Assembly (NCBI GenBank): GCA_964610125.1
Contig: CAZSUV010000001.1
Location: 383,877-447,876, forward strand
Length of the DNA: 64,000 nt
From: an uncultured Candidatus Saccharibacteria bacterium
GTDB lineage: Bacteria > Patescibacteriota > Dojkabacteria > SC72
Direction: 5' to 3'
Positions 9,270-53,969 of the stretch are shown piece by piece; within the stretch, counting starts at the first letter, position 1, and each line of letters begins with the position of its first letter. Both the position numbers and the translations under genes were made by a program. Under the pieces are notes generated by a model that was given only the letters and a program-made list of their open reading frames with translations, did no database searches and had not been told where the DNA came from.

Positions 9270-9276
9270 ACTCCTA

Positions 9277-9828
9277 TTAGAATTTTATCTCAACATTTTT
9301 TTGCTCTTCCTCTGATGCTTCAAAGAAAGGCTCTGCTTTGAATCCAAACATACCCGCAAGGATGTTATTTGGGAATACAACAATCATTGTATTAAAGTCT
9401 CTAACAGTACCATTGTAGAATCTTCTGGACTTCTGAATGTTATCTTCTAAATCCTTAAGACTTGTTTGTAAATCTAAAAAGTTTGTATTTGCTTTTAATT
9501 CTGGATAGTTTTCAGCTAATGCAAATATCTTTGAAAGACCTTTTGAAAGTTGATCCTCAAGCTTTGCTTTTTCATCAAATGAACCAGCCGACATTGCTTT
9601 GTTTCTTAACTCAGTTACAGCTTCAAAGGTTCCCTTCTCATGCTGTGCATAGCCTTTAACAATTGATACAAGATTTGGAATCATATCGTATCTCTGCTTT
9701 AGCATTGTTTCAATGTCTGCAGATGCTTCATTTATGACAACCTTCTGGCTTGCAAGTTTGTTATAAAGAGAAACGAGAACTATTGCTAATAGCAATACGA
9801 TTCCCAGTGTTATGTATAGTGCTGTCAT
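9277..9828 (-). CDS. LemA-family membrane protein
   Basis: N-terminal TM helix followed by a LemA-like soluble domain (...LKQRYDMIPNLV...GTVRDFNT...). Confidence 0.75.
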   Translation of the reverse strand: MTALYITLGIVLLLAIVLVSLYNKLASQKVVINEASADIETMLKQRYDMIPNLVSIVKGYAQHEKGTFEAVTELRNKAMSAGSFDEKAKLEDQLSKGLSKIFALAENYPELKANTNFLDLQTSLKDLEDNIQKSRRFYNGTVRDFNTMIVVFPNNILAGMFGFKAEPFFEASEEEQKNVEIKF

Positions 9829-20692: not shown

Positions 20693-22153
20693 ATGTTAAA
20701 TGTATATAGTCTACTAAAAAAGCGCAAGTTTATACAAATTATCCTAGTATTAGGTTTGTTTTTAATAGCCCCAAGCTTTGTTAGAGCTCAGGAAACAACA
20801 ACCGTAGCTCCTGTACAAGAACTAAAAGCATTTACATATTTTACAGGTATTGGATGTCCCCACTGTGCGAAGATATCTCCTACAATACATAAAAGTGTTA
20901 ATTCCCAGAATGGTTTGTTAATGATTGAGTATGAGATATATCAGGAATCCTCCAATGCTAGAACCTTGTATAGCTACAATTCTAAGTATGGATATGAGTT
21001 AGCAATTCCATTGATTTTGTATGCTCCTAAGGACTTTAACCAAGGGGATACTCCAATTCTTGATAACTTTGATACTCAGATAACCAAGCTTCAAACAAAT
21101 ACAATTGAGCTATCAAACAAGACTGTAAGCTGGACTGATTTGAATTTGAATGATTTTGAGGGTAAGGTAAAATTGTTAACAAAGGATAGAATGGCGATGC
21201 AGAGTAATACTAAAGATTTGAACACTGAGCAGATGGTATTGATAAAGGAGTTTTTGGTTGCTAAAGATTTAGATACATATGTTCAAACTTTACAAGGAAC
21301 TAAAGTTAAGGACATGACTATTGAATATCCTGGAGGTAATGAAATATATACCCATGGCGTTAATATTGGATCATGGACCTTACTTTGGAGAGGAAATAGT
21401 GACGCACAGATAACTGATGGGAAGACCACGACTACAGACTCTAATATTACAAATTCAAGCAATATTTCTTGGGCAAAGATTTCAACGTTAGCGCTTACAG
21501 ATTCTATAAACCCATGCGCATTGTCTGTCCTTTTAATGATGCTAATAGCCATAGCTACATATCATCCTAAGGATAGAAAGCAGATATTGTGGGCGGGCTT
21601 GGCCTTCGTAGCAGCGGTATTTATCACATACTTCATATATGGTCTTCTAATAGTTAAAGCTTTTTCATTTGTGCAAGGTATTAGCAGTATTAAATTGTAT
21701 TTGTACAAGGGGCTAGGGGCAGGTGCAATTATTTTGGGCTTACTTGAGATTAAGGATTTCTTTTTCTACAAGCCTGGATCTATCGGTACTGAGATGCCTA
21801 TGATGTTTAGACCTAAGGTTCAACAGATTCTTGCTAAGGTTACTTCTCCTTTAGGTGCATTTGGATTGGGTATGTTTGTTACTTTATTCTTACTGCCTTG
21901 TACGATTGGCCCATACATTATATTGGGTGGTATGTTGTCATATGGTGAGTTTGCTGGTGCATTGCCATATCTTACTGTCTACAATCTGATATTTATCCTT
22001 CCTATGGTGGTTATAATCCTACTTGTATTCTTTGGATCTAAGAGTATTAAACAGGTTACGGAATGGAGGGAGAAGAATGTTAAGGTTATGCATTTGATAA
22101 TTGGAATAATATTTGTTCTCTTAGGTGTTTCTATGTTCTTTGGGTTGTTTTAA
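20693..22153 (+). CDS. Secreted thioredoxin-like domain (CPHC) fused to a CcdA/DsbD-type transmembrane thiol:disulfide electron-transfer domain
   Basis: Signal peptide (cleavage near VRA-QE). GIGCPHCAK thioredoxin motif. A C-terminal polytopic domain with conserved membrane-embedded Cys (SINPCALSV and LLPCTIGPY), as in CcdA/DsbD. Confidence 0.6.
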   Translation: MLNVYSLLKKRKFIQIILVLGLFLIAPSFVRAQETTTVAPVQELKAFTYFTGIGCPHCAKISPTIHKSVNSQNGLLMIEYEIYQESSNARTLYSYNSKYGYELAIPLILYAPKDFNQGDTPILDNFDTQITKLQTNTIELSNKTVSWTDLNLNDFEGKVKLLTKDRMAMQSNTKDLNTEQMVLIKEFLVAKDLDTYVQTLQGTKVKDMTIEYPGGNEIYTHGVNIGSWTLLWRGNSDAQITDGKTTTTDSNITNSSNISWAKISTLALTDSINPCALSVLLMMLIAIATYHPKDRKQILWAGLAFVAAVFITYFIYGLLIVKAFSFVQGISSIKLYLYKGLGAGAIILGLLEIKDFFFYKPGSIGTEMPMMFRPKVQQILAKVTSPLGAFGLGMFVTLFLLPCTIGPYIILGGMLSYGEFAGALPYLTVYNLIFILPMVVIILLVFFGSKSIKQVTEWREKNVKVMHLIIGIIFVLLGVSMFFGLF

Positions 22154-22338
22154 ATAACCAAGAATAGTTTCAATGGTTTGTTATATGAATTACCTATAAT
22201 AGGGATGATACTAACGATATGGGTATAAATACTAATGATTTATATCAATATTTATTAGTAATATAGTGATTTTGTATGGATATTTATCATGATATGTAAT
22301 ATATTCATGATTTCCGATTGTATCGGTGAGGCGGTCGA

Positions 22339-22404
22339 GAGGGAGGTTCAGATTGAAGAAATGTTATATGCCAAAAGGCAATATAGTATTATCTGAACCC
22401 CCTC
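22339..22404. terminator. Long-stem hairpin between convergent genes (candidate bidirectional terminator or structured RNA)
   Basis: GAGGGAGGTTCAGAT ... ATCTGAACCCCCTC forms a 14-bp stem with a 1-nt bulge. The 37-nt loop contains an inner TGCC-AAAA-GGCA hairpin. Confidence 0.35.
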
Positions 22405-22456
22405 TTAGGCCTATTGTTGAATTCAATATTCATGAGATTGTGGTTTATTTAGCAAG

Positions 22457-22774
22457 CTAAATTTTATGGAATAAAAAGAATTTTATATCCATTTTCCACA
22501 ATCTAAACTGTGTCGCTATCCTGTTGGGTAAGCTTAAATCTAAGCATGCGACACTACTTTCTGGTGTAGGTATGTACAATTTTGTCATAACACTACAGAC
22601 AGAGCCATCTCTTTTCTCATATGTCGATAATCCTGCAGGAAATTGTGTTGGGAGTTTTTCAGGCTCATCAGCAACAACAAATTGTGCAAAAATCATGGCG
22701 ACAAAGACTATGATTAAGATATGGGGTAACAAGGTTCTTGTTTTTGTTTTCATTGAAAGCTCTCCTCTTCCCAA
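22457..22774 (-). CDS. Hypothetical small secreted protein
   Basis: 105 aa with an N-terminal hydrophobic segment (LLPHILIIVFVAMIFAQFVVA) and two Cys. No recognisable family. Confidence 0.25.
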   Translation of the reverse strand: MGRGELSMKTKTRTLLPHILIIVFVAMIFAQFVVADEPEKLPTQFPAGLSTYEKRDGSVCSVMTKLYIPTPESSVACLDLSLPNRIATQFRLWKMDIKFFLFHKI

Positions 22775-22862
22775 AAGGGAATAAATAAATTTGTGTTTAT
22801 TCGTGTTATACGAATTAAAGCCTTAAAGCTGGAGACTTGAAAGTTATAAATCGTACAACACG

Positions 22863-22934
22863 GAGGAGAATGCAATAGGTCTTTTTAAAGAGCAGTATAA
22901 GCTATTTCTAACCTATAGTATATTATACCATATG
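22863..22934. repeat. Intergenic repeat, copy 2 (partner at 17986-18060)
   Basis: GGAGGAGAATGCAATAGGTCTTTTTAAAGAGCAGTATAAGCTATTTCTAACCTATAGTATATTATACCATATG. Lies 160 bp upstream of the first cassette gene. Confidence 0.6.
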
Positions 22935-23095
22935 CCCAATAAATTATACAATAATCATAAATTAAAATCGCGTTATTGATATGCGCTTACTAAAACATAG
23001 AGCAATACATTTATATAGGTACTGTATTTCTTTAAATAATTTAGTATATACTAAACATATCTAATCTGCCTAAATAGAAGACTATATAAATAGTT

Positions 23096-24271
23096 ATGTC
23101 TAAAAAGAAAAAATATATCTTACTATTATTAATAACCTTAGTACTTGCTGCTGTTACAGCTAGTATATACATATTTGTTAATTCGAAGATAAATGGTTCT
23201 ACTATATATACAGTAGATAAATATTCAGATGTTACGAATAGGTGTGATACAAATTTAAAGGATGGAAAGTTATCAGTAGATTGTAAAGCCTTATTAATCA
23301 ACATTGACTCAAATAGTTGCTTTGAAGTGCAGCTCATTACCAAGGACAAAGAATTAAAAGATTTAACTGTTTGTGAGAAGAATGATACTCTTTCATATAC
23401 CAATGATGTATTAGGATACAAAAAGCTAATGCCTGTAGATATGGTATTTACATATACTAAGGAAGGAATACTAAGAGATTACTCATTTAACAACGTTTCG
23501 TTTACTAAGGTAGAAGATACATATGTGCAGAGTATTGTTAATGAAGACATTGCGAACCTAGTAACTTTAGATCCCAAATCAACAGCAATTGAGAATAGTG
23601 TAGATTTTTGTCCAAGACCTGAAACATTGCCAAGTTATATTACAGAAGTGAATAGAACTGCATATACAGAATATTTCAACAAGAATATAATGGCTAAGGA
23701 AAAATATTTCGATGGATATATGTACAACTGGGATGATAGTACCATACGGATATTGTTTGCTTGTGATAGTGCTAAAAATATGGGGTATACAGATGTATGT
23801 AATACTCAAAGATCACAGAATGATAAGAAGCAATCTGTTATCTTCCATGATGTCGATTTTAGCAATAAATTATCTAACTCCAAACTTAATGCTCAAGATA
23901 AATTATTGAAAACCGTGTCTTTAATATACGATAGTATGCACAAGGATATAGGAAACAATATAGTAGATGTAGGTTTGCTCGGTGATATCGTGCAAGAAAT
24001 CAATGCAACAGAAAAATTACAAGAAGAAGTTCTTTGGGGAATTTATAAAATTTATTTGGATTTAACAACATTAAATACATCATATCAGCAAAAATCTTAT
24101 TTTATCGAATCAATACTTAAATCTCAAGGCGATATGTTAACTTACTGCCCTGATGGTGGAGAATCACAATATCATAACGAGATAGGGAAATATTTTAGAT
24201 GCTCAATTGAAAATCAAACTACAATTTATCGTAGATGCAATAATTTAAGAAATTTTATATCTAATGAATAA
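23096..24271 (+). CDS. Cassette gene A1: N-terminally membrane-anchored, Cys-containing extracytoplasmic protein (paralog of 27061-28275)
   Basis: 391 aa with a basic N-terminus then a TM helix (YILLLLITLVLAAVTASIYIFV). At least 8 Cys are conserved with the paralog (NRCD, VDCK, NSCFEVQ, LTVCEKN, VDFCPRPETLPSYITE, LFACDS...DVC). The last codons overlap the B1 start (ATGAATAAG). Confidence 0.7.
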   Translation: MSKKKKYILLLLITLVLAAVTASIYIFVNSKINGSTIYTVDKYSDVTNRCDTNLKDGKLSVDCKALLINIDSNSCFEVQLITKDKELKDLTVCEKNDTLSYTNDVLGYKKLMPVDMVFTYTKEGILRDYSFNNVSFTKVEDTYVQSIVNEDIANLVTLDPKSTAIENSVDFCPRPETLPSYITEVNRTAYTEYFNKNIMAKEKYFDGYMYNWDDSTIRILFACDSAKNMGYTDVCNTQRSQNDKKQSVIFHDVDFSNKLSNSKLNAQDKLLKTVSLIYDSMHKDIGNNIVDVGLLGDIVQEINATEKLQEEVLWGIYKIYLDLTTLNTSYQQKSYFIESILKSQGDMLTYCPDGGESQYHNEIGKYFRCSIENQTTIYRRCNNLRNFISNE

Positions 24272-27053
24272 GTTCATCCTATTACTGATTATCATTGCCA
24301 TTGTTACTTTCCTGCCGTTTAAATTAGAAGCTGCAGATTGCTCCAATGCTCGTGCGGGAGGAAGCGGGTTAACCTGTAGCGTTAGTGGTATACAAAGTTA
24401 CTGTGCCTCTGGAACAACTTTTTGTGATTGTGCACGGTATGGAACAGCACAACAGATTCACTGTACCCAAGGTGCATACTATTATGGACTTTGCGTATTT
24501 AGCTCAGGCCCAGAAGTTGCAAGCTGGGGATATTGCACACGGAATGTAGATGCTACATATCCTAACGGTGGAACATGTACTTGTTGTACTCCAATCTCTT
24601 GTTCCTGTACCCCCTCATGCCCAGCAGGCGCCTCTACAACATACTCAGGCCCTCTATGTGCTGCAGGAAACGCAAGTTGTTCTCAATCAAATTCCTGTTC
24701 CTCATGTACAAGTACTGGGAGCGCCTGCTACTATCCAGAAACCAACACCACCTTCATCCAATCTAACGGCTCAACTTCAGGCCCAACCTCTGTAAATATG
24801 GTTGTAGATGGTAAAACATATATCCTTTCTACAGACCCAAACAACCCAACCCATATCAAACTCCCAGCTTTAGGTTCTTCTAATGTACAGATAACCACAC
24901 CAACATTCACAGCCCCTGTAACCTCTAGAGGAGCCAATTACTACTACCAAGCCAATAACTATGGAAGTAGCAATGAATGGAAAACATGGACAACATGCTC
25001 AGGCATAGCAGGAGAAGACTTCTGTACTACAATGCCAAATTCAAACAATACTCAAAGCTTTGTACCAACATCTAAAACAGTAAACCAAGTATTAAAGGAA
25101 GGAGCTACTGGAGAAATATCCGCAATGTATGCCACTACAGACAAATGTAACAATACATACAAATATTCATTGCCTATCAAAGGTTACTACATTGTTGATA
25201 CCCTCCCAGATTCACAACCTAATGAAGGAGGCAGTGAAATAGTTAACCCCGAAGATCTTTTCTCAGACATAGGTTTGAATACTACAGCAAATGGTTGTTC
25301 TTCTTTAACATACTCTGGTGTAGAAGCTAACAACGAATTACATATAAAAGCGGACGTTACAGATATCGATGACCTGAACGAAATACAAGCTCTAACCCTT
25401 TGGTTTACAAAAGATACAAACGTTCCTACAACAGAAACAATCTCAGCCTCATATACAGGAAGTATAACTGAGGACCTTGGAATTATGATTAAAAAGAATG
25501 GAGGCGATTGGAGCAATCCAACTATATATGCTACAAATGCAAACCTAAGCTGGGGAGAAATATCACTAACTGATGGGAAAGGATATATAAATGTAGCAGG
25601 TTCTAACATTATCGAAATATATGATATATCAGTCACCCAGGATCTCAATGCAACCTTCGACTACAAGATAAAGTTTTTGAGAAACGCTTCAACCCTTTCT
25701 GGTATGTACAATGTCTACGGAGGCTCACTCGATACATACATGATTAATGGGAACATTATCGATCAAAGTTATTTTGTTAAATTTTTTGATTGGGGAGTAG
25801 ATCTTGAAAACCCTACAGTAGAAGATATAACTCAACAAATTAGAGACTCACAAAATACCTACATAATTTGGGGAAATGCCGATAGCATTAGTGGGATAGC
25901 ACAAACTGTCATTAACGCCTATAGATTGGGTGGAGTATCAACTGACCCAGAGGGGGTTAAATTATATCTTCCAGCCGCATATACAATATTGAAAGGCGCA
26001 ATAACGTTGGATCCTAATGCAAGTATTCCTGATACTATAAACATTGGTAGATACAATGATACAAACGCATGGGTATTTAGCAACAATACTGGAGAACAAG
26101 ATTTAATAAATATTGGAAATAACGAAAGTGGTCAAATCGCTTTATACATAACAGCATATGACAAAGCATGTAACATGAGCGGAAATAGCGCAGATATAGA
26201 TTTAAATCCATGGTTTGCATCAAGAGGGGCAACTGTATATTCTAAGGGCAATATCTCAACAACAACAAAAGATGTTTTAAATTTACCATCACTCAATGGA
26301 GTATTTAACCCAAAGACAGGAATGAACACAACTCTCATTGATCTTGGAAGTGAATTACTTGCGACAAGAAACATCTCTATCTCAAATATAATTCATCCCT
26401 CAAGTGGAGCAGTTTTAGCAACAGAAGTAGAGGATTCAAATAATACTAAAGGAAACTGGTACGCACATCTTCTTGAGAAATTTAATAGATACAAGTCCGA
26501 GCTAACACCATTTGCTAAAGTCGTAACGGACGATTCAGTGTCAGATAGTTGCACCGGTAAGAATTGCTATATGTATTCAATTGAAGACATTACAATTCCG
26601 CAGGGGTATACCTGTGACCGAAGTACATTATTCATTACAGAAGGAAATATACATATAAATCCTGATGTAAATAGTGATAACAATTTGTTAAGTGGTTGTA
26701 TATTTCTAGCAAAGAATAATATTTATATAGAAGCCGGAAGATTTAAATCAACAGGGACAAAAATCTTATATGATTATATAGAGGGTTATATGATTGCAGA
26801 TAATCAAATTATCTTTACAGTGGCAGATGAATCTCGCGCATTGAGAGATGGCGTTGAAATTTTCGGTGGAATGGTAGGGCTAGCAACAAGTGATAACAAA
26901 GGAATATTAATACAACGCAATCTAAGATTATATAGTCAAATAAATCCAACCGTAGTATTAACATATGACACAAAATACCCAAGCATCTCAACTATATTCT
27001 TTGGAACAGAATACAGTTTGTATAAACAAGAAGTTGGGTTCAAAACATTTTAA
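24264..27053 (+). CDS. Cassette gene B1: large secreted protein with an extremely Cys/Ser/Thr-rich N-terminal domain and an Asn/Thr-rich beta-rich body (paralog of 28278-31031)
   Basis: 929 aa with a cleavable signal peptide (FKLEA-ADCS). About 20 Cys in the first ~150 residues (TCTCCTPISCSCTPSCPAG...CSQSNSCSSCTSTGSACYYPETN). The body is conserved with the paralog (IDGKTY.LST.PNNPT, PTFTAP.TSRG, CSGIAGEDFCTT, KYSLPI.GYY..DTLP, LTYD.KY). The protein ends ...YKQEVGFKTF. Confidence 0.75.
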   Translation: MNKFILLLIIIAIVTFLPFKLEAADCSNARAGGSGLTCSVSGIQSYCASGTTFCDCARYGTAQQIHCTQGAYYYGLCVFSSGPEVASWGYCTRNVDATYPNGGTCTCCTPISCSCTPSCPAGASTTYSGPLCAAGNASCSQSNSCSSCTSTGSACYYPETNTTFIQSNGSTSGPTSVNMVVDGKTYILSTDPNNPTHIKLPALGSSNVQITTPTFTAPVTSRGANYYYQANNYGSSNEWKTWTTCSGIAGEDFCTTMPNSNNTQSFVPTSKTVNQVLKEGATGEISAMYATTDKCNNTYKYSLPIKGYYIVDTLPDSQPNEGGSEIVNPEDLFSDIGLNTTANGCSSLTYSGVEANNELHIKADVTDIDDLNEIQALTLWFTKDTNVPTTETISASYTGSITEDLGIMIKKNGGDWSNPTIYATNANLSWGEISLTDGKGYINVAGSNIIEIYDISVTQDLNATFDYKIKFLRNASTLSGMYNVYGGSLDTYMINGNIIDQSYFVKFFDWGVDLENPTVEDITQQIRDSQNTYIIWGNADSISGIAQTVINAYRLGGVSTDPEGVKLYLPAAYTILKGAITLDPNASIPDTINIGRYNDTNAWVFSNNTGEQDLINIGNNESGQIALYITAYDKACNMSGNSADIDLNPWFASRGATVYSKGNISTTTKDVLNLPSLNGVFNPKTGMNTTLIDLGSELLATRNISISNIIHPSSGAVLATEVEDSNNTKGNWYAHLLEKFNRYKSELTPFAKVVTDDSVSDSCTGKNCYMYSIEDITIPQGYTCDRSTLFITEGNIHINPDVNSDNNLLSGCIFLAKNNIYIEAGRFKSTGTKILYDYIEGYMIADNQIIFTVADESRALRDGVEIFGGMVGLATSDNKGILIQRNLRLYSQINPTVVLTYDTKYPSISTIFFGTEYSLYKQEVGFKTF

Positions 27054-27060
27054 ATAAATA

Positions 27061-28275
27061 ATGAGAAAAACTTCTACAAAAACAAAATACATATTAATGC
27101 TCCTATCCTTTCTTTTTATCGTTTCTTTAGGCACAGGGATATTTTTTTTGTTAAAACAAAAAACGTTGAAAATATTCGAGAAGAGGATTAATAGATATTC
27201 AGAGGTGTTTGATTGGTGTAACCATACTTTAAATGATAATAAATTAGATATTAATTGTTCTGGATTATTAAAAGATATTAAAGTCACAGAAAATAAAGAA
27301 ACATGCTTTGAAATACAGGTAATCGCCCAGGACAAGCAACTAAAGGATATGACTGTTTGTGAAAATGAAGATAATTATGTATATACCAACGATGTATTGG
27401 AGTTTAAAAGATTGATGCCAGTTAGTATAGTATTTGCTTATACAAATGAAGGGGTATTAGGTGAATATCAATTAAATAAAGTTTCATTCTCTAAAAAAGA
27501 TAATACGTATATACAGAACATTATCAATGAAGATATTGCGAATCTCGTTACAATAGATCTAAGTACCACAACGATACAAAATAGTGTAGATTTTTGTCCT
27601 CAATTAGAGACATTGCCAAGTTATATTACAGAGGCTAATAAAAATGCATATTCCGAATATCTCAATAAGAATACTCTTACGGAAGACAAATACATAGATC
27701 CTCTATTATATAGTTGGGATGATACTATCATACGGTTACTATACGCGTGTGATTCTTCAAAAAATATGGGATACAAAGGGGTATGCAGTGATAAAAAAAT
27801 TAACAATCTGTCTTTAATGTCAACTGAAATAAACCATATCTATGCTACTCCAGTTTGGAATAATACATTGAATAATAAAAACAAAATGCTTCTGAAGGAG
27901 ATTTCGCTTCTATATGACAATATGTATTCTATCAATATACCCAATAGCTTGGTAAATCTAAGTTTAATGAAAGACCTAGTTGATACTGTGAACACAGACT
28001 CAAACCTTAATGGGGAAATATTATGTGGAATATATAAGATTTATAGTGGACTAGCAACCCAAGATAGCAAATATATTTCTGATAGAAATACCCTCCGAGA
28101 TTTGTTTTCTTCAGACTTATCAAATACTTCGACATGCACAGATATTATTCCCGATCTTAATTTGAACAAAGATACAAATGGAATATATATAGAAAGATAT
28201 TACTCAAATCTCCAACCTGACCTATTAACAATATATTCAAGATGTCAAAACCTAACTAACATTGTATTATATTAA
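27061..28275 (+). CDS. Cassette gene A2: membrane-anchored Cys-containing protein (paralog of A1)
   Basis: 404 aa, alignable with A1 over its full length with the same N-terminal anchor and conserved Cys positions. Stop lies 2 nt before the B2 start. Confidence 0.7.
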   Translation: MRKTSTKTKYILMLLSFLFIVSLGTGIFFLLKQKTLKIFEKRINRYSEVFDWCNHTLNDNKLDINCSGLLKDIKVTENKETCFEIQVIAQDKQLKDMTVCENEDNYVYTNDVLEFKRLMPVSIVFAYTNEGVLGEYQLNKVSFSKKDNTYIQNIINEDIANLVTIDLSTTTIQNSVDFCPQLETLPSYITEANKNAYSEYLNKNTLTEDKYIDPLLYSWDDTIIRLLYACDSSKNMGYKGVCSDKKINNLSLMSTEINHIYATPVWNNTLNNKNKMLLKEISLLYDNMYSINIPNSLVNLSLMKDLVDTVNTDSNLNGEILCGIYKIYSGLATQDSKYISDRNTLRDLFSSDLSNTSTCTDIIPDLNLNKDTNGIYIERYYSNLQPDLLTIYSRCQNLTNIVLY

Positions 28276-28277
28276 GT

Positions 28278-31031
28278 ATGAAAAAATTGTTTTTAATGAT
28301 TCTAACTTTGGCGATACTATTCTTCTCAAGATTTGAAACAGTTTTTGCATATACATATACTACATGCACTGGTGGAAGTACTTCATGTTCCTGCACTTCA
28401 GGTTCAATAGATTGCCCATGTCCTGATGGTACATGCTACATCACCTGTAACCAGAGAACATGTAGTGACTGTACAAAACAGGGATGTTGGGTAAATGGAG
28501 GCGGAATTACTTGCTATAATATAGGCACATGTACTTGCACTAGCAGCGCAGGAGGCACAAGATATCCTAACGGCTCTTCAGTTTCTTGCTGTAGTCAGAT
28601 TAATTGTAACTGTACACCAACATGTACAGCAGGTGCGTCAACTACGGTGACAGGAAGCCTATGTAGTGCTGGAACATCTAGTTGTTCACAATCAAATTCT
28701 TGTTCCTCATGTACTAGTACAGGAGCAGCTTGTTATTATCCTGAAACGAATGTAATCCCACCAACACCAAATACAATAAGCATGATTATTGATGGTAAAA
28801 CATACCAACTTTCTACCAATCCCAATAATCCAACCAAATTGAAACTTCCAAAGCTTGGAGCCTCAAATGTACAAATTACAGTTCCAACTTTTACAGCACC
28901 AGCTACATCAAGAGGTGGAGGCTATTATTTTACAGCCAACAATTATGGAATCAATGATGAATGGCGAACCTGGGTATCTTGCTCTGGTATAGCGGGTGAA
29001 GATTTCTGTACAACGGTACCAAACACAAACAATACTCAAAGTTTCGTCCCTACCTCTAAGACAATAAATCAAGTACTTAAGGAGGGAGCAACTGGAAAGA
29101 TTTCAGGAATGTATACAACTACTGATAAATGTGGCAATACATATAAATACTCTCTTCCAATAGAGGGTTACTACCTCATAGATACATTACCCCATGTCTC
29201 TCCATCACCAGATTCACCAACAAACAACACAACCATTATTGATCCTCAAGACTTAGTTCCAAGTATAGGAACAGACATTACTACAAATGCATGCCAATCC
29301 TCTACATACACAGGAAGTGAGATTAATAATCCACTTCATATTATTGCCCAAACCTCGGACACTAATACAAATGACGAAATCCAATCCTTTACCATTTGGT
29401 TAAGTCAAGATTCTTCAATTCCGACAACAACAACAATAACTTCATCATACACAGGAAGTACAAATACTGATTTGGGAATAATGATAAAGAAGAATGGCAC
29501 AGATTGGACAAATCCTTCTCTCTATGGCACAAATTCTTCATTAGATTTTGGACAAATTACTGATGGATATATAAAAATTAATAACGAAAATATAATTAGG
29601 ATATATGATCTTTCAGTAACACAAGACACAAATATAATATTTGATTACAAACTTGAATTCTTAAATAATTCAAATACTATATCAGCTCTATACCATATTT
29701 ATGGAGGAGCACTAGACACAAATATGTTTAATGACGCAACTATCGATCAAAGCTATTTTGCAAAATTTTTTGATTGGAATATTGATTTAGTAAACCCAAT
29801 CCTTGACAATATTGTTCAACAAATCCAAAATCCAACAAATACAAATCTAACTTGGTCTGTAACCGATTCTCAAAGTGGTATAGGACGCACTGTCATTAAT
29901 GGGTATCGAACTGGAGGAATAGAAACAGATACCGCAACTCTTTTTGATAAAAATAATACTAATAAGGGAGCATTGAATTTAGTGGCAAAACCACTTGATA
30001 ATGCAATAGGATTATATACAGACACAAATGCATGGATTTTTGATAATAATGCTGGAGAAACCGATCGCCTAAACATTGGTACTAACGAAGGAGGCGCTAT
30101 CGATATATATGTAACAGCATACGATAACGCATGCAATTCAACAAGTACAAGTGAAAAAATAGATTTAGACCCTTGGTTTGCCACACGAGGAGGGGCAGTA
30201 TATTCCGAGAACAATATTTCAAAAGCTCCAAAGGATGTATCGCAAGTATCAAGCCTAGATAACGTCTTCAATTCAAGAACATTGATGACGAAAAGTCTAA
30301 TAGATCTTGGAACTGAACTATTAGCTACAAGAAACACAAATATCTCGGTTCTTATTCACTCTAATAGTGGAGCTGCTAAGGCTATCCTAGCGTACGATTC
30401 AAATAATATTAAATTATATTGGTTCAACACATTGTTGGAGAAATTTAATATATTAGCGAATAAATCTTCACAATTTTCCTCTTTGACTACGCGTACTTCT
30501 ATTGATTGTACAGGGGAAACTTCATGCTATATGCATTCCACAGCCCCAACTGAAGACATACATATTCCAAAAGGTTATCAATGTGATAGACCTACCTTAT
30601 TTATATCAGAAGGAAATATTTACATTGAACCTAATATTACCAGCGATATTACAAAAGCAACGGGTTGTATATTTATAGCAAAGAATAATATATATATTGG
30701 CGCTGGAGATTATCAATCTACTGGAAGTGTAATAGAATATGATTATATAGAAGGTTTCTTAATTGCTGAAAACCAGGTAATTTTCTCTCCTGTAGATACT
30801 AATCAAACCTTACGTGATGGAATAGAAATGTTTGGTGGAATTGTGGCATTTGGATCAAATTCATTACAAGAGGGAAATGCGATTTCGATAGAGCGAAATA
30901 TGCGTTTATTCAATCAAACCAATCCCACTATAGTTTTGACATATGATAATAAATATTCATATCTTTCTACTTTTTTCTTTGGTACAGAAGCTACAATATA
31001 TAAGCAAGAAGTTGGCTTTAAATCTTTTTAG
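28278..31031 (+). CDS. Cassette gene B2: large secreted Cys-rich-N-terminus protein (paralog of B1)
   Basis: 917 aa with a signal peptide (ETVFA-YTYT) and a Cys-rich N-terminal domain sharing CSQSNSCSSCTSTGAACYYPETN with B1. Alignable with B1 over its full length. Ends ...YKQEVGFKSF. Confidence 0.75.
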   Translation: MKKLFLMILTLAILFFSRFETVFAYTYTTCTGGSTSCSCTSGSIDCPCPDGTCYITCNQRTCSDCTKQGCWVNGGGITCYNIGTCTCTSSAGGTRYPNGSSVSCCSQINCNCTPTCTAGASTTVTGSLCSAGTSSCSQSNSCSSCTSTGAACYYPETNVIPPTPNTISMIIDGKTYQLSTNPNNPTKLKLPKLGASNVQITVPTFTAPATSRGGGYYFTANNYGINDEWRTWVSCSGIAGEDFCTTVPNTNNTQSFVPTSKTINQVLKEGATGKISGMYTTTDKCGNTYKYSLPIEGYYLIDTLPHVSPSPDSPTNNTTIIDPQDLVPSIGTDITTNACQSSTYTGSEINNPLHIIAQTSDTNTNDEIQSFTIWLSQDSSIPTTTTITSSYTGSTNTDLGIMIKKNGTDWTNPSLYGTNSSLDFGQITDGYIKINNENIIRIYDLSVTQDTNIIFDYKLEFLNNSNTISALYHIYGGALDTNMFNDATIDQSYFAKFFDWNIDLVNPILDNIVQQIQNPTNTNLTWSVTDSQSGIGRTVINGYRTGGIETDTATLFDKNNTNKGALNLVAKPLDNAIGLYTDTNAWIFDNNAGETDRLNIGTNEGGAIDIYVTAYDNACNSTSTSEKIDLDPWFATRGGAVYSENNISKAPKDVSQVSSLDNVFNSRTLMTKSLIDLGTELLATRNTNISVLIHSNSGAAKAILAYDSNNIKLYWFNTLLEKFNILANKSSQFSSLTTRTSIDCTGETSCYMHSTAPTEDIHIPKGYQCDRPTLFISEGNIYIEPNITSDITKATGCIFIAKNNIYIGAGDYQSTGSVIEYDYIEGFLIAENQVIFSPVDTNQTLRDGIEMFGGIVAFGSNSLQEGNAISIERNMRLFNQTNPTIVLTYDNKYSYLSTFFFGTEATIYKQEVGFKSF

Positions 31032-31081
31032 ATAATGATATACTGAAGACTTACTTAATCTGCTCTATATAAATAATAAAT

Positions 31082-31837
31082 ATGGTCAAACCATTCCTCT
31101 ACTTTGACACCGAAACAACAGATATTCAGGTAAAAGACCTAATACAATTAGCTTTCATCACTGACTCAGAAGTTAAACTTAATATGTATTTCAAGCCAAA
31201 ACAAAATATCGCGTTTGCTGCTATGGCAGTACACCATATAACACCTGAATTTTTAGAAGATAAACCATATCTAGAAGAAGCAAAACTTCCACTTGAGAAC
31301 ATTGATCCCGACTTCATCGGCGAGACCCTTGAGGATTATTTACACTTCCTCGCAGACAAATATATATGGGTAGCACATAATGTTGATTTTGATTTAGAAG
31401 TACTCGATAGAAAAGGAATCAAGATTCCCAATAGCATATGCACGCTTAAATTAGCACGGAACATGTTCTACGAAGGAGATCACGACCTGGAAAGTTATGC
31501 ACTTCAGTATTTAAGATATTTTCTTGGTCTATACAAAAATGAGAATTTAGAGCATAACACAGCTCATGATGCTTTAAGTGATGTATATTTCCTTCGAGAT
31601 TTATTTCATTACATGCAAGCAAATAGTACATTAAGTGCCGAGAATATGATTCTCATCTCAAAAGAGCCTCAGTTTATGAGACAAATGACATTTGGTAAGT
31701 ATGCGGGAAAAACACTAGAAGACATTGCACGAACAGATAAGGGATACTTAGAATGGATAGTAGACACAATGCTAGATAAACCAGATTTACAATGGAATGC
31801 TAAAAGAGTTTTGGGAAATGGATTAACATTATTTTAA
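31082..31837 (+). CDS. DEDDh-family 3'-5' exonuclease (DnaQ/epsilon-like) with a C-terminal KYxGKTLxEI...YLxW domain
   Basis: Exo I FDTETTD, Exo II HNVDFDLEVL, Exo III HTAHDALSDVYF. The C-terminal ~60 aa (FGKYAGKTLEDIARTDKGYLEWIVD) resembles the small domain appended to some exonuclease X-like proteins. Confidence 0.7.
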   Translation: MVKPFLYFDTETTDIQVKDLIQLAFITDSEVKLNMYFKPKQNIAFAAMAVHHITPEFLEDKPYLEEAKLPLENIDPDFIGETLEDYLHFLADKYIWVAHNVDFDLEVLDRKGIKIPNSICTLKLARNMFYEGDHDLESYALQYLRYFLGLYKNENLEHNTAHDALSDVYFLRDLFHYMQANSTLSAENMILISKEPQFMRQMTFGKYAGKTLEDIARTDKGYLEWIVDTMLDKPDLQWNAKRVLGNGLTLF

Positions 31838-31855
31838 TTGATATACTATAAAGTA

Positions 31856-32809
31856 ATGAAACATAAACAATACCCGGCGCAAGCCTTGGCCATAGCTATG
31901 GTTGTGCTTGTTGTATCTTCAATCTTAGCAATTTCAATATATTCTCGAGTATCAAAAGACAAAACACTCTCCCTTGATGAGAGGAATTCTGCTGAAGCTT
32001 TAGAAGTATCAGACTTGATTCTTAACTATCTAACAGCATCACCAATCGAAAAAACAATTGCATTAATAGAACAAGACGGGCTTCAATCATTAGACTCAGG
32101 GATAGGAATAACATTAACTGAGAATTCAACAAAAACAGAGATAAGTGATTTGCTAAATAGTATTACAAATAATACCAATAGCATAGATAACCTGAGTATA
32201 TGCCCGTTGCCTGTATCGGATAATACATACTTCCTCAATATTAGAAAAGCCGACTTAGATACGTATTTTGAAATACGTCCAGGCCAAATAATGGTCTTAC
32301 CAATAAAAAATACCCCCCTTGGGGAAGATTGTAATACTATCGTGAGAGCAGCTGTACGAGGAGATTCAGGCGCTGGATTCACAGTCACATACATATATGC
32401 AAAGAACTATGATACAGATGGATATGCAAGAACATATAAACCATATGCTGAAGCAGATGTCTTACACTATTGTTTCGCAACTTCTGGTCAGTGCAATAAT
32501 ACCACCTCCTTTGGAGGAGGGCTAAACTGGATTCCATACCCTGGAGAGATAGTAGTGGATCTGCGAGATAATACATACTCTTCTGATGGTTATACGCTTG
32601 ACGAAGTAAAAATAACTGCTGTTGGAGGAACAATAGGAATTGCTTACAATATCCCTGCAGCCTGCACAGAAGAACTAAACATGATAAATGTCCAAGCTGG
32701 AGCCAACTGTAGTGGAACATATAGAGGAAAATCTGTTCTAATCCCTGCGAAACAGTGGGAAGTTCCACTCTTTAACTACGTACTTTTCAATGGCGAGGGC
32801 TCACTTTAG
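31856..32809 (+). CDS. Hypothetical membrane-anchored, Cys-containing, Asn/Thr-rich extracytoplasmic protein
   Basis: ATG at 31856 (MKHKQYPAQALAIAMVVLVVSSILAISIYS) is preferred over the upstream TTG used by the ORF track. Single N-terminal TM helix then about 290 aa with paired Cys (CPLPV, CNTIV, CFATSGQC, CTEE...CSGT). No prepilin G-F-T-L-I-E motif. Confidence 0.5.
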   Translation: MKHKQYPAQALAIAMVVLVVSSILAISIYSRVSKDKTLSLDERNSAEALEVSDLILNYLTASPIEKTIALIEQDGLQSLDSGIGITLTENSTKTEISDLLNSITNNTNSIDNLSICPLPVSDNTYFLNIRKADLDTYFEIRPGQIMVLPIKNTPLGEDCNTIVRAAVRGDSGAGFTVTYIYAKNYDTDGYARTYKPYAEADVLHYCFATSGQCNNTTSFGGGLNWIPYPGEIVVDLRDNTYSSDGYTLDEVKITAVGGTIGIAYNIPAACTEELNMINVQAGANCSGTYRGKSVLIPAKQWEVPLFNYVLFNGEGSL

Positions 32810-32848
32810 TAACTTACAAGTTCGAAATCTAAAATATTGAATTGAAAT

Positions 32849-34552
32849 ATGCCAGCTAATAGATATTGCATAAAACTAGGCGGAGAATCTGGGCAAGGAA
32901 TTAACACTCTTGGTTTGCTTCTCAGTAAAGCCATGAAATCAATAGGATATAACATTTTTTCATATCGTGAATACCCATCCCTGATTAAAGGTGGTATAGC
33001 CTCATATCAAATTGATCTCGCAAATAAATACATAGCTTCATCCTCAAAATCATGCCATATATTGGTAATATTAGATCCTGAAGCAGTACATGAATATCTT
33101 CATTCCCTGAATGCTAATGGTATTTTACTATATGATGATAAGCAAGTAGTATTTACACAAGAAGAACAAGATTGGATAAAACAAAATAATGTTCATACCA
33201 TTTACCTAGATTCACAGGCAATGGCTGTCAATGCAGGAGGTTCTCCAATCATGTCGAATATTGTCATGACTAGCTTCCTTTGGAAGCTACTAGCGTTTAA
33301 CCCAGAAGATCTTACAAATATTGTTAAAGAGATATTTACCTCTAAAGGAGATGATGTAATAAACAAAAATATTCTCTGTTTAAATGCCGGATACAATGCT
33401 TCGGAATTCAAAGACGAATATTTACAAAATACACTCATTCCAGAACAGCTCAAGCAAGAAAATAACAGTAAAATATTAACGGGAAATGATGCAATTGCAT
33501 TAGGAGCAATATCCGCAGGAGTACGTGCATACTACGGTTACCCAATGACTCCAGCAACCACCATATTCAAATATTTAGGTAATACATATAAAGAGACAGG
33601 TATACTCATTAAACAAGCAGAAAGCGAAATTACAGCCGTACAAATGGCACTGGGAAGTATGGCCATGGGAACCAGAGCACTAACAGCAACATCAGGAGGT
33701 GGCTTTGATTTAATGCAAGAAACCATATCGTGTGCAGGAATAACAGAAACACCATTAGTCATAGTATTAGCACAAAGAATAGGGGCAGGCACAGGAGTAC
33801 CCACATGGACAGGAAGCAGTGATATCCATACAGCAGTAAAATCTGGACATGGTGAATTTCCAAAAGCAGTACTTTGTGTAAGTGATATACAATCAGGATA
33901 TATACTAATCCAACAAGCTTTCAATATCGCAGAAATATATCAAATCCCCGTAATAGTTCTAACTGAGAAGCAGATAGCTGAATCCCTCTTTACAGTCGAC
34001 ACTCTCCCGCAACCATTACAAATTCAAAGAGGAACATACGATGGAGAAAGTAGATACACGATAACCAATACAGGAATATCACCAAGATGGATACCAAGTT
34101 TTGACAAAAAACCATATCTAAATACAAGTGACGAACATAATCAAAATAGCCAAAGTACAGAAAATGGGGAAGAGATAAAAGCAATGTCAGATAAAAGGAT
34201 GCAGAAACATGCAACATTGTTAAGTAATCTACCCGAACCAACCCTCTATGGAGACCCTAATGCACCAACAGTGTTAATTGGTTGTGGAAGTACAAAAAAT
34301 CCTGTCATAGATGCAATAAATGAAGGAATGAACATTGCATACCTCCATTATGAATATCTGTATCCAACTAAAACACAAACTCTAATGAATTTAGTATCTT
34401 CTGGCAAACGAATAATCCTAGTTGAGAATAACCAAACAGGCGAATTAGGAAAGATATTAACAGAAGCTTCAGGCTATCAATTTAAGGAAAAAGTTTTAAA
34501 ATATGACGGAAGACCATTCTTCCTAGAAGATATATTAAACATACAAATATAA
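32849..34552 (+). CDS. 2-oxoacid:ferredoxin oxidoreductase, fused gamma-alpha subunit
   Basis: N-terminal gamma-like domain (GGESGQGINTLGLLLSKAM...YPSLIKGG) followed by an alpha domain (GNDAIALGAISAGVRAYYGYPMTPATT). Confidence 0.8.
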   Translation: MPANRYCIKLGGESGQGINTLGLLLSKAMKSIGYNIFSYREYPSLIKGGIASYQIDLANKYIASSSKSCHILVILDPEAVHEYLHSLNANGILLYDDKQVVFTQEEQDWIKQNNVHTIYLDSQAMAVNAGGSPIMSNIVMTSFLWKLLAFNPEDLTNIVKEIFTSKGDDVINKNILCLNAGYNASEFKDEYLQNTLIPEQLKQENNSKILTGNDAIALGAISAGVRAYYGYPMTPATTIFKYLGNTYKETGILIKQAESEITAVQMALGSMAMGTRALTATSGGGFDLMQETISCAGITETPLVIVLAQRIGAGTGVPTWTGSSDIHTAVKSGHGEFPKAVLCVSDIQSGYILIQQAFNIAEIYQIPVIVLTEKQIAESLFTVDTLPQPLQIQRGTYDGESRYTITNTGISPRWIPSFDKKPYLNTSDEHNQNSQSTENGEEIKAMSDKRMQKHATLLSNLPEPTLYGDPNAPTVLIGCGSTKNPVIDAINEGMNIAYLHYEYLYPTKTQTLMNLVSSGKRIILVENNQTGELGKILTEASGYQFKEKVLKYDGRPFFLEDILNIQI

Positions 34553-52844: not shown

Positions 52845-53969
52845 ATGAAATATATTTTTTCGATATTCATTGCACTAATATTCTCGAGTATATTACCAAC
52901 CACTCTTCTACAAAATGAAATAGTCGAAACATCCATAACACTTGCACCACCTCCTATAGAACAAAAAATCCTCAAATATATGACCACTGAGGAGAAAGTA
53001 GGACAACTCTTTATGTTTGGAATCAATGGCACTACTTTAACATCTGAAACGCAGCAATTTCTTACTGACCATCATGTAGGGAGTGTATTACTGTATGGAA
53101 AAAATGTAATAAGTGAAGATCAAGTAAAATTATTTACTCAGAGCCTACAAACAACTAATAGAATCCCACTATTCATATCAATTGATCAAGAGGGAGGAAT
53201 TGTATCAAGATTGAAATGGAACATCACTTTAACATTTGCTCAAGAGGATATTCAGACACCAGAACAAGCATATATTGTTGCAAAAGATAGGGGAGAAATA
53301 CTTAAGAATCTAGGAATAAATATGAACTTAGCTCCAGTAGTAGAATATATCACTAACAAGAGCTCATTCATGTATTACAGAGTCTTTAGAGGCACACAAG
53401 AGGAAGTTGCACAGAAAGGGATATCATCAATACAAGGATACAAACAATCGAATGTCGTTGCAGTATTAAAACACTATCCTGGGCACAGTGATACTTCGCC
53501 CGATTCACACTTCAATCTACCAGTTGTAAATATATCTAATGATCAATGGAGTGAATATGTAAAACCATTTAGTAGAATACTTGAGCAAACAGCTGTAGAC
53601 GGAATAATGGTGGGACATGTTGAATATCCAAATATTGATAGTAATCCATCAACAATATCACCTGAGATTGTTTCAAAAAGGTTAATACATGATCTCGGAT
53701 ATACCGGATTGATCATTTCTGATGATATGGAAATGGGAGCTCTAAAGGAGATAGATACAGATGTTAATCTAGCTAAGCGAGCACTAATTGCAGGGAATGA
53801 CATTCTAATCTACAGTACTGCTAACGATTCGGGCTCATCCATACAACAAAAGGTCTATGATTACATCTTACAGGAGGTTACAAATGGGAGTATGAATATA
53901 GATGAAAAAGTATTAAAGATATTAAGAATGAAAATTCAATATGGGATATTACAGCCTGATCGTAATTGA
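52845..53969 (+). CDS. Glycoside hydrolase family 3 N-terminal domain protein (NagZ-like beta-N-acetylhexosaminidase)
   Basis: N-terminal TM/signal segment. KHYPGHSDTSPDSH and ISDDMEMGA match the GH3/NagZ catalytic region. Confidence 0.75.
   Translation: MKYIFSIFIALIFSSILPTTLLQNEIVETSITLAPPPIEQKILKYMTTEEKVGQLFMFGINGTTLTSETQQFLTDHHVGSVLLYGKNVISEDQVKLFTQSLQTTNRIPLFISIDQEGGIVSRLKWNITLTFAQEDIQTPEQAYIVAKDRGEILKNLGINMNLAPVVEYITNKSSFMYYRVFRGTQEEVAQKGISSIQGYKQSNVVAVLKHYPGHSDTSPDSHFNLPVVNISNDQWSEYVKPFSRILEQTAVDGIMVGHVEYPNIDSNPSTISPEIVSKRLIHDLGYTGLIISDDMEMGALKEIDTDVNLAKRALIAGNDILIYSTANDSGSSIQQKVYDYILQEVTNGSMNIDEKVLKILRMKIQYGILQPDRN

Follow-up and report, generated by a model that had tools for sequence, protein, structure and literature searches.

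A cysteine-rich, candidate exchangeable head domain in a hitherto undescribed Dojkabacteria family of large surface proteins

Two paralogous genes in the window, the whole stretch of 64,000 nucleotides analysed here, encode members of B, large surface proteins that form a previously undescribed family in the tiny, uncultivated Dojkabacteria (WS6), for which we know of no cultured representative. On balance, we favour the view that the cysteine-rich N-terminal region of these proteins is the disulfide-scaffolded, exchangeable and exposed head of a two-gene (A-B) surface system, which would probably serve in host or ligand recognition. To our knowledge, host recognition and attachment by CPR/Patescibacteria are largely unknown, and the B family provides a concrete candidate for an exposed specificity determinant, with a small head of ~135 aa. 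Both the unannotated family and its Cys-rich module, which is without a match in Pfam, NCBIfam or PDB, are newly defined here. The features of the locus are listed below.

20693..22153, plus strand: thiol-disulfide gene, encoding a CPHC extracytoplasmic domain fused to a CcdA/DsbD-like membrane domain
23096..24271, plus strand: A1, open reading frame of 391 aa, membrane-anchored at its N-terminus, 10 Cys
24264..27053, plus strand: B1, open reading frame of 929 aa, a secreted protein in which signal peptide and Cys-rich head precede a conserved, beta-rich body
24264..24332, plus strand: B1 signal peptide, residues 1-23 (MNKFILLLIIIAIVTFLPFKLEA), read from the sequence
24333..24572, plus strand: B1 distal head, residues 24-103, hypervariable, 8 Cys
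24573..24746, plus strand: B1 neck module, residues 104-161, conserved, 11 Cys, with CYYPETN at its end, defined by alignment
27061..28275, plus strand: A2, open reading frame of 404 aa, paralog of A1 (43% identity)
28278..31031, plus strand: B2, open reading frame of a 917-aa paralog with the architecture of B1
28350..28577, plus strand: B2 distal head, residues 25-100, 13 Cys, with the motif CPCPDGTCYITC
28578..28751, plus strand: B2 neck module, residues 101-158, 10 Cys
31838..32809, plus strand: membrane-anchored protein of ~320 aa, 3′ of the last B gene

The 3′ end of A1 and the start of B1 share 8 nt, and 2 nt separate the end of A2 from B2. Both Cys-rich segments lie inside long open reading frames in frame 3, directly after typical Sec signal peptides, with 24340-24745 corresponding to B1 residues 27-160 and 28345-28760 to B2 residues 24-161. 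The signal peptide of B1 comprises an n-region, a hydrophobic core and an L-E-A cleavage-type end, at which the putative cleavage site is placed. Overall, the two B proteins are 56% identical, and each has an even number of cysteines (28 in B1, 32 in B2). The flanking genes identified are a helicase, Trx-CcdA, an exonuclease and POR. Rfam searches matched two tRNAs only, and a scan for promoters and terminators gave the same result as shuffled sequence.

The initial annotation had described a domain packed with cysteines right after the signal peptide of both paralogs, and the counts bear this out. B1 has 19 Cys in residues 24-161 (at 26, 38, 47, 54, 56, 67, 77, 91, 105, 107, 108, 113, 115, 119, 132, 139, 145, 148 and 155) and B2 has 23 in residues 25-158, the last of them at residue 152. 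Given a local background of 1.1%, the chance that 137 residues include 19 or more Cys is 1.6e-15, and for 23 Cys it is 2e-20. The CxC, CC and CSSC arrangements listed in the annotation are present in the head, while CxxC is rare, the single one in B1 being the CSSC itself. A proteome-wide Cys bias does not account for this composition, since no 140-residue segment has more than 6 Cys in any of the window's other 47 open reading frames of at least 150 aa; overall, even with the B proteins counted in, cysteine makes up 1.24%.

The same architecture extends across the family. A profile search recovered 339 representatives at 50% identity (E<1e-3), with 201 at E<1e-30, and B1 has 40 close homologs. 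The conserved core of the family spans profile positions about 320-905, and the N-termini differ. Aligned end to end with 32 homologs, B1 and B2 share 100 invariant columns and display the features of the family, namely a signal peptide, a Cys-rich head, a C-terminal core of ~580 residues that closes with EVGFKxF and, as a rule, an A gene upstream. Across 78 full-length, non-redundant members, the median for mature residues 1-180 is 20 Cys (11.1%), versus 1.3% in the remainder. At least 12 Cys occur in this region in 72 of the 78 representatives with a signal peptide, so that a Cys-rich N-terminus, which had been thought unusual for bacteria of this type, is the rule within the family. It also appears not to belong to a known domain, as matches were absent from Pfam, NCBIfam and PDB, by sequence or by fold. 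Specifically, at E<=1 B1 had no family match in either Pfam or NCBIfam, B2 matched no NCBIfam family and only two DUFs below threshold in Pfam, and the B sequence had no match in PDB. A literature search found no paper on the B family. When the head alone was queried against a set of 5.8 billion proteins, no match was returned, not even its own protein, probably owing to a word-index limit on low-complexity sequence.

Cysteine parity is informative about the state of these residues. The total count is even in 98 of 108 family members (p=2.7e-19) and in 70 of the 78 non-redundant representatives (p=1.7e-13), which favours disulfides over metal ligands or a thioester. In most of 34 aligned sequences, both the head count and the body count (9 or 11) are odd, implying one disulfide that joins head and body. 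Within head types, Cys columns are conserved at 0.92 and 0.83, compared with 0.39 and 0.41 for the other columns. These patterns indicate that the head is almost certainly disulfide-bonded, and that its cysteines may form a fixed scaffold between which the loops would be free to vary.

Parity likewise bears on the roles that the initial annotation had offered, of which the disulfide-rich module is retained and the metal-binding and thioester or covalent-attachment modules lose ground. A metallothionein- or zinc-ribbon-like head that sequesters or senses extracellular metals would fit the dense cysteines with their CxC, CC and one CxxC. Metallothioneins, including the bacterial SmtA type, are small cytosolic proteins with few aromatic residues, in which Cys act as metal thiolates. 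We consider such a head very unlikely, and a metallothionein-like module a poor fit, because the domain is exported behind a signal peptide and forms part of a 929-aa, beta-rich extracellular protein, is rich in Tyr and Trp and poor in His, has few CxxC (one in B1), and shows no metallothionein or zinc-ribbon match in Pfam or NCBIfam; moreover, metal sites do not require the even parity seen throughout the family. A role in covalent attachment, whether as a thioester adhesin or by disulfide exchange between a reactive Cys and a host protein, fits no better. Abundant cysteine on the surface protein of a probably episymbiotic bacterium would be compatible with it, but an unpaired reactive Cys predicts odd counts where ~90% of members are even, no thioester-domain family was matched in Pfam, and the alignments contain no conserved Cys-Gln pair, which together make this role extremely improbable.

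The head consists of two parts that differ in conservation, as identity between B1 and B2 is 25-30% in the distal head and 54-78% in the neck. The invariant positions of the neck are C115, C119, C132, C139, C145, C155, Y156, E159 and N161. An HMM of the neck block matched 57 of the 188 family proteins collected, most members have one neck module per protein, and the head is a single domain. The near-identity noted at the end of the Cys block corresponds to the tract SCSQSNSCSSCTSTG(S/A)ACYYPETN, located at residues 138-161 of B1 (24675-24746) and 135-158 of B2 (28680-28751). It is identical at 23 of 24 residues, and the DNA at only 58 of 72 nucleotides, with 11 of the identical residues encoded by different codons, a pattern that points to selection on the protein and not to recent gene conversion. 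Recent conversion between B1 and B2 was also rejected as the cause because the longest exact run between the two genes is 16 nt. The part upstream of the tract, which had been described as reshuffled, proved instead to be weakly homologous and strongly diverged (31% identity over 72 aa, E=7e-4).

Across the family, head similarity is uncoupled from body similarity. The heads closest to that of B1 (P0020, P0013 and P0035, 42-49% identity) are borne by bodies only 43-57% identical to its own, and the bodies closest to B1 (72-76% identity) bear unrelated heads. B2 carries a different head type, and its nearest head, that of P0021 (59% identity, 101 bits), belongs to a protein whose body is only 53% identical. 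Similarly, P0007 and P0218 have bodies that are 88% identical and heads that are 21% identical, and P0019 and P0218 have heads at 72% and bodies at 61%. Over 3081 pairs, which are not phylogenetically independent, the correlation between head and body was r=0.28 versus 0.57 between module and body. In pooled clusters at 90% identity, including the possibly chimeric P0003 cluster, variable columns were 6 times commoner in the head. Near-clonal clusters showed no head changes, suggesting that variation arises by occasional large replacements and not by continuous change.

Sequence comparison among relatives also pointed to recombination where head and body meet. The paralogs of locus L002 are 80-100% identical over nt 540-1980, with an exact run of 332 nt, and their heads share 24-49% identity; at L007, an exact tract of 94 nt lies directly after the head. 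The pair P0003/P0216, with 100% identical bodies and unrelated heads, was set aside as proof of head replacement. The 4-kb contig of P0003 (L024) matches the two L007 paralogs, both of one genome, as an exact mosaic, and it probably derives from the same lake dataset. It may thus be an assembly chimera, so this pair does not serve as primary evidence.

DGR targets are common in CPR. Their variable region is usually a C-terminal C-type-lectin fold that undergoes adenine-directed changes and lies close to a reverse transcriptase and the template repeat. B resembles them in having a hypervariable region, presumably of a ligand-binding type, on a CPR surface protein. Unlike in DGR targets, this region is N-terminal and Cys-rich, and the head is matched by no repeat except its 70%-identical paralog, such paralog pairs being the only repeats within 22000-33000. 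Hypermutation by a DGR was rejected, given that no template repeat for the head was found and that near-clonal alleles have identical heads.

In the mechanism that we propose, B would be exported via its Sec signal peptide, and its first ~135 mature residues would fold as a small, beta-rich domain held by disulfides. This head would combine the hypervariable distal part (B1 24-103) with the conserved neck of 10-11 Cys (104-161), the latter being tied to the conserved beta-rich body by one further disulfide. The finding of different heads on similar bodies and of similar heads on different bodies suggests that head diversity may arise as paralogs multiply (here to two copies, in relatives to as many as three) and through recombination at the neck-body junction. 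We infer both surface exposure and a binding function for the head, which would most likely face outward and either bind a ligand, on a host cell or in the environment, or vary so as to escape recognition.

A further step, which we offer as a tentative possibility, is that the head acts as an exchangeable host-recognition cassette. Several A-B copies with different heads would be kept, and recombination between copies or strains at a conserved hinge immediately behind the neck would exchange heads and so give the cell surface a new target or a disguise. If this were true, B would represent a recombination-based system of host range or antigenic variation in an ultra-small episymbiont, built on a new disulfide-rich fold. 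The 94-nt tract of L007 and the conversion boundary of L002, at about nt 540, would be examples of such a hinge.

Structure prediction was consistent with a beta-rich protein. The AF2 model of B1 (mean pLDDT 74) is all-beta and multidomain. The model of the head is only moderately confident (pLDDT 73.6); it predicts long beta hairpins in the distal head, with pLDDT of 82-95 over part of this region, and a Foldseek search with it found no fold match, the best hit having E=1.4. For the full B1 model, Foldseek returned only generic matches to Ig/FN3 arrays, with TM-scores of 0.1-0.2, and the body is therefore assigned to no family. Such arrays are also found in structural proteins, those of S-layers among them.

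These matches, which include the S-layer proteins EA1 (8opr) and HPI (8cka) among the generic Ig-like arrays, bear on the idea that the head is structural only. B would then be a surface-layer or coat protein or a rigid stalk, whose head adds stiffness and protection from proteases and whose variability reflects relaxed constraint or escape from phages or predators. An anchor with a coat subunit would be compatible with the A-B gene pair, and Cys parity supports structural disulfides. At TM-scores of 0.1-0.2, however, the likeness to S-layers is no more specific than that to any beta-sandwich array. Distinct head types persist beside gene-converted bodies, and old head types have been kept across diverged bodies, which looks like selection for distinct specificities and not like drift. 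We therefore regard a purely structural head as rather doubtful; if it were so, B would still be a tidy example, in a minimal bacterium, of oxidative folding outside the cytoplasm, though of modest interest. The term stalk, used in the initial annotation, captures the disulfide-rich character of the domain but misses its distal half, which is the most variable part of B and resembles an exposed specificity determinant.

The second component of the proposed recognition system is the A protein. An A gene 5′ of a B gene recurs at loci L002-L010, L015, L016, L018, L021 and L023, and A1 matched no Pfam or NCBIfam family. The identity of A proteins tracks that of the module and the body (Spearman 0.64 and 0.62), but not that of the distal head (0.18), with which co-variation was looked for and not found. 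A may thus be a membrane-anchored partner that co-evolves with neck and body and not with the distal head. The gene for the ~320-aa protein is conserved in position at L002-L004, L009-L014, L017, L019, L020 and L023, and its product has 131 homologs, all unannotated and without a Pfam family.

This gene always follows the last B gene, and its product, like A, has a single hydrophobic helix at the N-terminus. In addition, CPR bacteria prominently feature type IV pili and divergent pilins (10.1101/335083). B could accordingly serve as an adhesin, at the tip of a pilus-like filament or accessory to it, with the head as its tip-binding module and with A and the ~320-aa protein as anchored partners resembling minor pilins. 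We hold this arrangement to be unlikely, as the sequences of both partners lack the prepilin motif (G, then F/M-T-L-x-E), no pilin or PilX match was found in Pfam or NCBIfam or among the 131 homologs of the ~320-aa protein, and the flanking genes identified so far include no pilus-assembly genes.

The Trx-CcdA neighbour (20693..22153) is a candidate folding helper for B. Its product contains a CPHC motif (DsbA-type), aligns with CcdA (PDB 5vkv, E=0.004) including the PC motif, and weakly matches SfLAP/DsbD_2 in Pfam. It adjoins the A-B array at L001-L008 only, that is, in the closer relatives, so its link to B may be plain synteny. Membrane domains of the CcdA/DsbD type with Trx normally act as electron donors in reductive or isomerising pathways. 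Thiol-disulfide oxidoreductases that work outside the cytoplasm are enriched in CPR bacteria (10.1101/335083). In the MdbA/VKOR folding of surface proteins and pilins of Actinomyces and Corynebacterium, with MdbA-like proteins being CPR-enriched (10.1101/335083), exported substrates acquire extracytoplasmic disulfides, which parallels B and the CPHC gene adjoining its array. The neighbour of B differs from MdbA/VKOR in that a Trx-like domain is fused to a CcdA/DsbD-type membrane domain, and its functional link to B is putative.

Giardia VSPs are eukaryotic proteins defined by frequent CXXC, a membrane anchor at the C-terminus and the tail CRGKA, and they have their own expression-switching mechanism. 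By analogy, B shares with VSPs and other Cys-rich variant coats of protists an invariant Cys framework, hypervariable loops, a conserved remainder and multiple paralogs. Since B1 has one CxxC, a C-terminus (...YKQEVGFKTF) without a hydrophobic anchor and no match to the VSP family in Pfam, B is not a VSP. The Cys-rich repeats of Myxococcus (TIGR02232) are, like B, bacterial, extracellular and Cys-rich; B1 and B2 differ from them in having no NCBIfam match at E<=1 and a single-domain head without internal repeats.

In Peregrinibacteria (CPR), large, Cys-rich and strain-variable extracellular proteins have been proposed to function in attachment or rigidity (PMC4736985), their sole weak similarity being to the Myxococcus repeats TIGR02232 (PMC4736985). 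Compared by description only, these proteins (Anantharaman et al. 2016, PMC4736985) resemble B in belonging to ultra-small CPR, in having a signal peptide, in being Cys-rich and strain-variable, and in being without functional annotation. They come from a different lineage than the B proteins of Dojkabacteria, and are ~1,650 aa long and Cys-rich throughout (~7%), whereas in B the cysteines cluster within ~140 residues of the mature N-terminus (11-17%) and make up 1.3% elsewhere.

The cysteine-rich segments noticed in the initial annotation fall within two of four tandem genes:

23096-24271, + strand: A1, first gene of the tandem A-B array
24264-27053, + strand: B1, second gene of the tandem array
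27061-28275, + strand: A2, third gene of the tandem array
28278-31031, + strand: B2, fourth gene of the tandem array

Read in frame 3, the flagged stretches correspond to residues 27-160 of B1 and 24-161 of B2, and a Sec-type signal peptide directly precedes them in both proteins. The description of a cysteine-rich segment behind the signal peptide holds for both paralogs, with 19 cysteines through residue 155 of B1 and 23 through residue 152 of B2, counts that, against a local background near 1.1%, would arise by chance with probabilities of 1.6e-15 and 2e-20, respectively. A proteome-wide cysteine bias, raised earlier as an alternative, is absent: the other 47 window ORFs (at least 150 aa) contain at most 6 cysteines per 140 residues, and overall cysteine content across window ORFs is 1.24%. 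The near identity of the tract SCSQSNSCSSCTSTG(S/A)ACYYPETN between the copies was likewise recovered, at 23/24 residues in protein. At the DNA level the tract is identical at 58/72 positions, different codons are used at 11 of its identical residues, and the longest exact run common to the B1 and B2 genes is 16 nt. These figures rule out recent B1-B2 gene conversion as the source of the tract and argue that it is kept by purifying selection on the protein.

The B genes encode a genuine, conserved protein that carries a signal peptide. Searches of Pfam, NCBIfam and PDB returned no sequence match for B1 or B2, and a profile built from 34 full-length homologs recovered 339 50%-identity-cluster representatives at E<1e-3 (201 at E<1e-30) among 1.84 billion proteins. 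The nearest relatives belong to candidate division WS6 (Candidatus Dojkabacteria) and to generically labelled Patescibacteria MAGs. The conserved family core comprises roughly the last 580 residues, and the N-termini vary in both length and sequence. At least 12 cysteines occur in the first 180 mature residues of 72 of the 78 signal-peptide-bearing full-length representatives, the median being 20 (11.1%) versus 1.3% in the remainder of the protein, which argues that the cysteine-rich N-terminus is a family rule and no peculiarity of the source genome. A few members additionally contain Laminin_G_3, DUF2341 or Gly_rich_2, kinds of module typical of surface proteins. Cysteine content is much higher in some members, reaching 29 in the part behind the N-terminal domain (the body) of P0032, P0033 and P0037, and 72 and 88 in total in P0054 and P0156.

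Alignments divide the cysteine-rich domain, or head, into a neck module and a distal part. The neck module (B1 104-161) holds 10-11 cysteines and follows the consensus CC-T-x3-C-x-C-T-P-S-C-P-x-G-x-S-T-T-x-S-G-x-L-C-x5-S-C-S-x-S-N-x-C-S-S-C-T-x-T-G-x-x-C-Y-Y-P-E-T-N, with C115, C119, C132, C139, C145 and C155 unchanged in all 34 aligned sequences; an HMM built on the module matches 57 of the 188 collected family proteins, some of which possess a second copy. The distal part (B1 24-103, B2 25-100) is hardly alignable family-wide and is 25-30% identical between B1 and B2. Distal parts group into recurring head types, that of B1 being recognizable by '...CDCxxYGTAQQIHCTQ...IDATYPNG' and that of B2 by 'CPCPDGTCYIxC'. 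Within these types, conservation reaches 0.92 and 0.83 in cysteine columns versus 0.39 and 0.41 in all other columns, the pattern characteristic of a scaffold of disulfides whose loops are free to vary. The AlphaFold2 model of the head alone (pLDDT 73.6) shows long beta hairpins and a well predicted core (pLDDT 82-95), and Foldseek found no match for it in PDB (best E=1.4). The full-length model (pLDDT 74) is all-beta and multidomain, matching only generic Ig/FN3 arrays of integrins, adhesins, S-layer proteins and phage tail proteins (TM 0.1-0.2).

Three roles had been proposed for the segment, namely a disulfide-rich stalk, a metal-binding module and a covalent attachment domain, and only the disulfide-rich module is supported. 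If all cysteines are paired, their number in the mature protein must be even, as it is in 98/108 full-length members (p=2.7e-19) and 70/78 non-redundant representatives (p=1.7e-13), and in B1 (28) and B2 (32). Together with the conserved cysteine columns, this parity makes it very probable that the cysteines form a disulfide scaffold. Even parity is predicted neither by a metal-thiolate cluster nor by a reactive thioester cysteine, and Pfam and NCBIfam searches gave no metallothionein, zinc-ribbon or thioester-domain family match. Metal binding by the head is thus very unlikely, and a thioester or reactive-cysteine domain extremely so. For the majority of the 34 sequences aligned, the head (through the ETN motif) and the body both have odd counts (19+9 in B1, 23+9 in B2; bodies of 9 or 11 in other members), which implies, in the putative disulfide map, that a single disulfide would staple the head or neck to the body. 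The N-terminus of B is a family-wide cysteine-rich domain with a conserved cysteine framework, even parity and variable loops.

Head and body differ in their histories. The bodies closest to B1 (72-76% identity: P0003, P0006, P0008, P0004, P0002) bear unrelated heads, and the heads closest to B1 (42-49%, about 70 bits: P0020, P0013, P0035) are found on bodies 43-57% identical; for B2, the closest head is that of P0021 (59% identical, body 53%). Bodies are 88% identical and heads 21% between P0007 and P0218, and heads are 72% identical and bodies 61% between P0019 and P0218. Over 3081 pairs, which are not phylogenetically independent, identity correlates at r=0.28 between head and body versus 0.57 between module and body. 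These comparisons make it likely that head evolution is decoupled from that of the body. In 90%-identity clusters, variable columns are 6 times commoner in the head, a pooled figure that includes the possibly chimeric P0003 cluster. Because two near-clonal clusters show no head changes, head variation is episodic replacement or divergence and not continuous hypermutation; a repeat search found no DGR-type repeat. The scaffold could also serve a purely structural head, a coat or stalk, which we consider unlikely beside the separate histories of head and body.

Recombination between paralogs is visible in relatives. On the 134-kb contig L002, paralogs P0022 and P0024 (5211-8009 and 10001-12727) show 80-100% DNA identity over nt 540-1980, where 332 consecutive nt match exactly; identity drops to 24-49% in the heads, and is 42-76% in the last third and 30-67% in the A genes upstream. 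Gene conversion appears to halt here at the head boundary. The B paralogs of locus L007 (5929-8775 and 10729-13491) share a 94-nt exact tract just 3' of the head, against a background of 40-75% identity. The 4-kb contig L024 (1-4055), from which P0003 originates, combines exact sequence from both L007 copies, the A gene and head from copy 2 and the body from copy 1, with the switch point inside this tract. Either true recombination between paralogs or chimeric assembly could have produced this mosaic, and it is excluded from the evidence relied on.

Relatives keep the same locus order, with between one and three A-B units per locus: helicase (- strand), Trx-CcdA, A-B units with an intervening ExoX-like exonuclease, a 320-aa protein and pyruvate:ferredoxin oxidoreductase. 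Two of the flanking genes are as follows:

20693-22153, + strand: Trx-CcdA fusion gene, encoding an extracytoplasmic thioredoxin-like domain with a DsbA-type CPHC motif and a CcdA/DsbD-like membrane domain (PDB 5vkv, E=0.004)
31838-32809, + strand: gene of the 320-aa protein, with one N-terminal hydrophobic helix

Extracytoplasmic thiol-disulfide oxidoreductases are enriched in CPR bacteria (10.1101/335083), and it is plausible that the Trx-CcdA protein helps to fold a 14-disulfide protein; its gene adjoins the array only in closer relatives (L001-L008), not in distant ones. The 320-aa gene always lies directly after the last B gene, including in distant Dojkabacteria loci, and its product is more conserved than B, with 131 homologs that are all unannotated and lack a Pfam family. 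Upstream of A1, a 940-nt AT-rich stretch (window 22154-23095, 31% GC) without a convincing ORF presumably houses the regulatory sequences of the array; it has no Rfam match, and a promoter scan there was uninformative. A proteins possess an N-terminal membrane anchor and 10 cysteines, and their genes lie flush against the B genes or overlap them. Since A identity follows the neck module and body (Spearman 0.64 and 0.62) and not the distal head (0.18) in 13 A-B pairs, this fits an arrangement in which A would touch the conserved part of B and the distal head would point away.

On balance we lean towards a disulfide-scaffolded, exchangeable and exposed head that may serve recognition. After Sec export, oxidative folding would turn the head into a compact domain rich in beta structure, which would contain some 9-11 internal disulfides and be linked to the body by one more. 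It would occupy the distal end of a beta-sandwich body that A tethers to the membrane. The variable loops of the head could bind a ligand on the host surface or in the environment, or vary to escape recognition, and new specificities could come from paralogs and from recombination at the hinge between neck and body. Binding or specificity as the function of the head is a tentative assignment. The head is not a member of the metallothioneins, thioester-domain proteins, Myxococcus Cys-rich repeats, DGR targets or pilins; a pilus-associated tip adhesin seems improbable.

The nearest precedent for B is the large, cysteine-rich, strain-variable extracellular proteins of Peregrinibacteria, with a proposed attachment role (PMC4736985). 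In working principle the head resembles variant surface proteins built on a cysteine framework, Giardia VSPs for example, but it lacks their defining CXXC density, C-terminal anchor and family match. The theme of cysteine-rich CPR surface proteins has thus already been noted, whereas the domain and family are undescribed and the evidence for a fixed-scaffold, exchangeable head is new. A hypervariable, recombining head on a conserved body, in a family of 339 representatives, is the most interesting aspect and was absent from the initial annotation; through its putative binding function it offers a testable handle on host recognition, relevant to CPR specialists.

Every B protein ends in a near-invariant ...YKQEVGFK(T/P)F (window 27021-27053 and 30999-31031), with Q922, E923, G925, F926 and K927 invariant among the 34 aligned sequences. 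This peptide has low pLDDT, with neither a membrane anchor nor an LPXTG motif, and may be a docking strand or sorting signal. Elsewhere in the window, this Dojkabacteria-type genome has a heliorhodopsin gene (61842-62603, + strand; Pfam PF18761, E=8e-101), followed by an MFS transporter (62615-63886). A gene pair encoding LemA and DUF2207 membrane proteins (7539-9828, - strand), a secreted GH3 glycosidase (52845-53969) and a polysaccharide deacetylase (60728-61777) are all cell-envelope-related.
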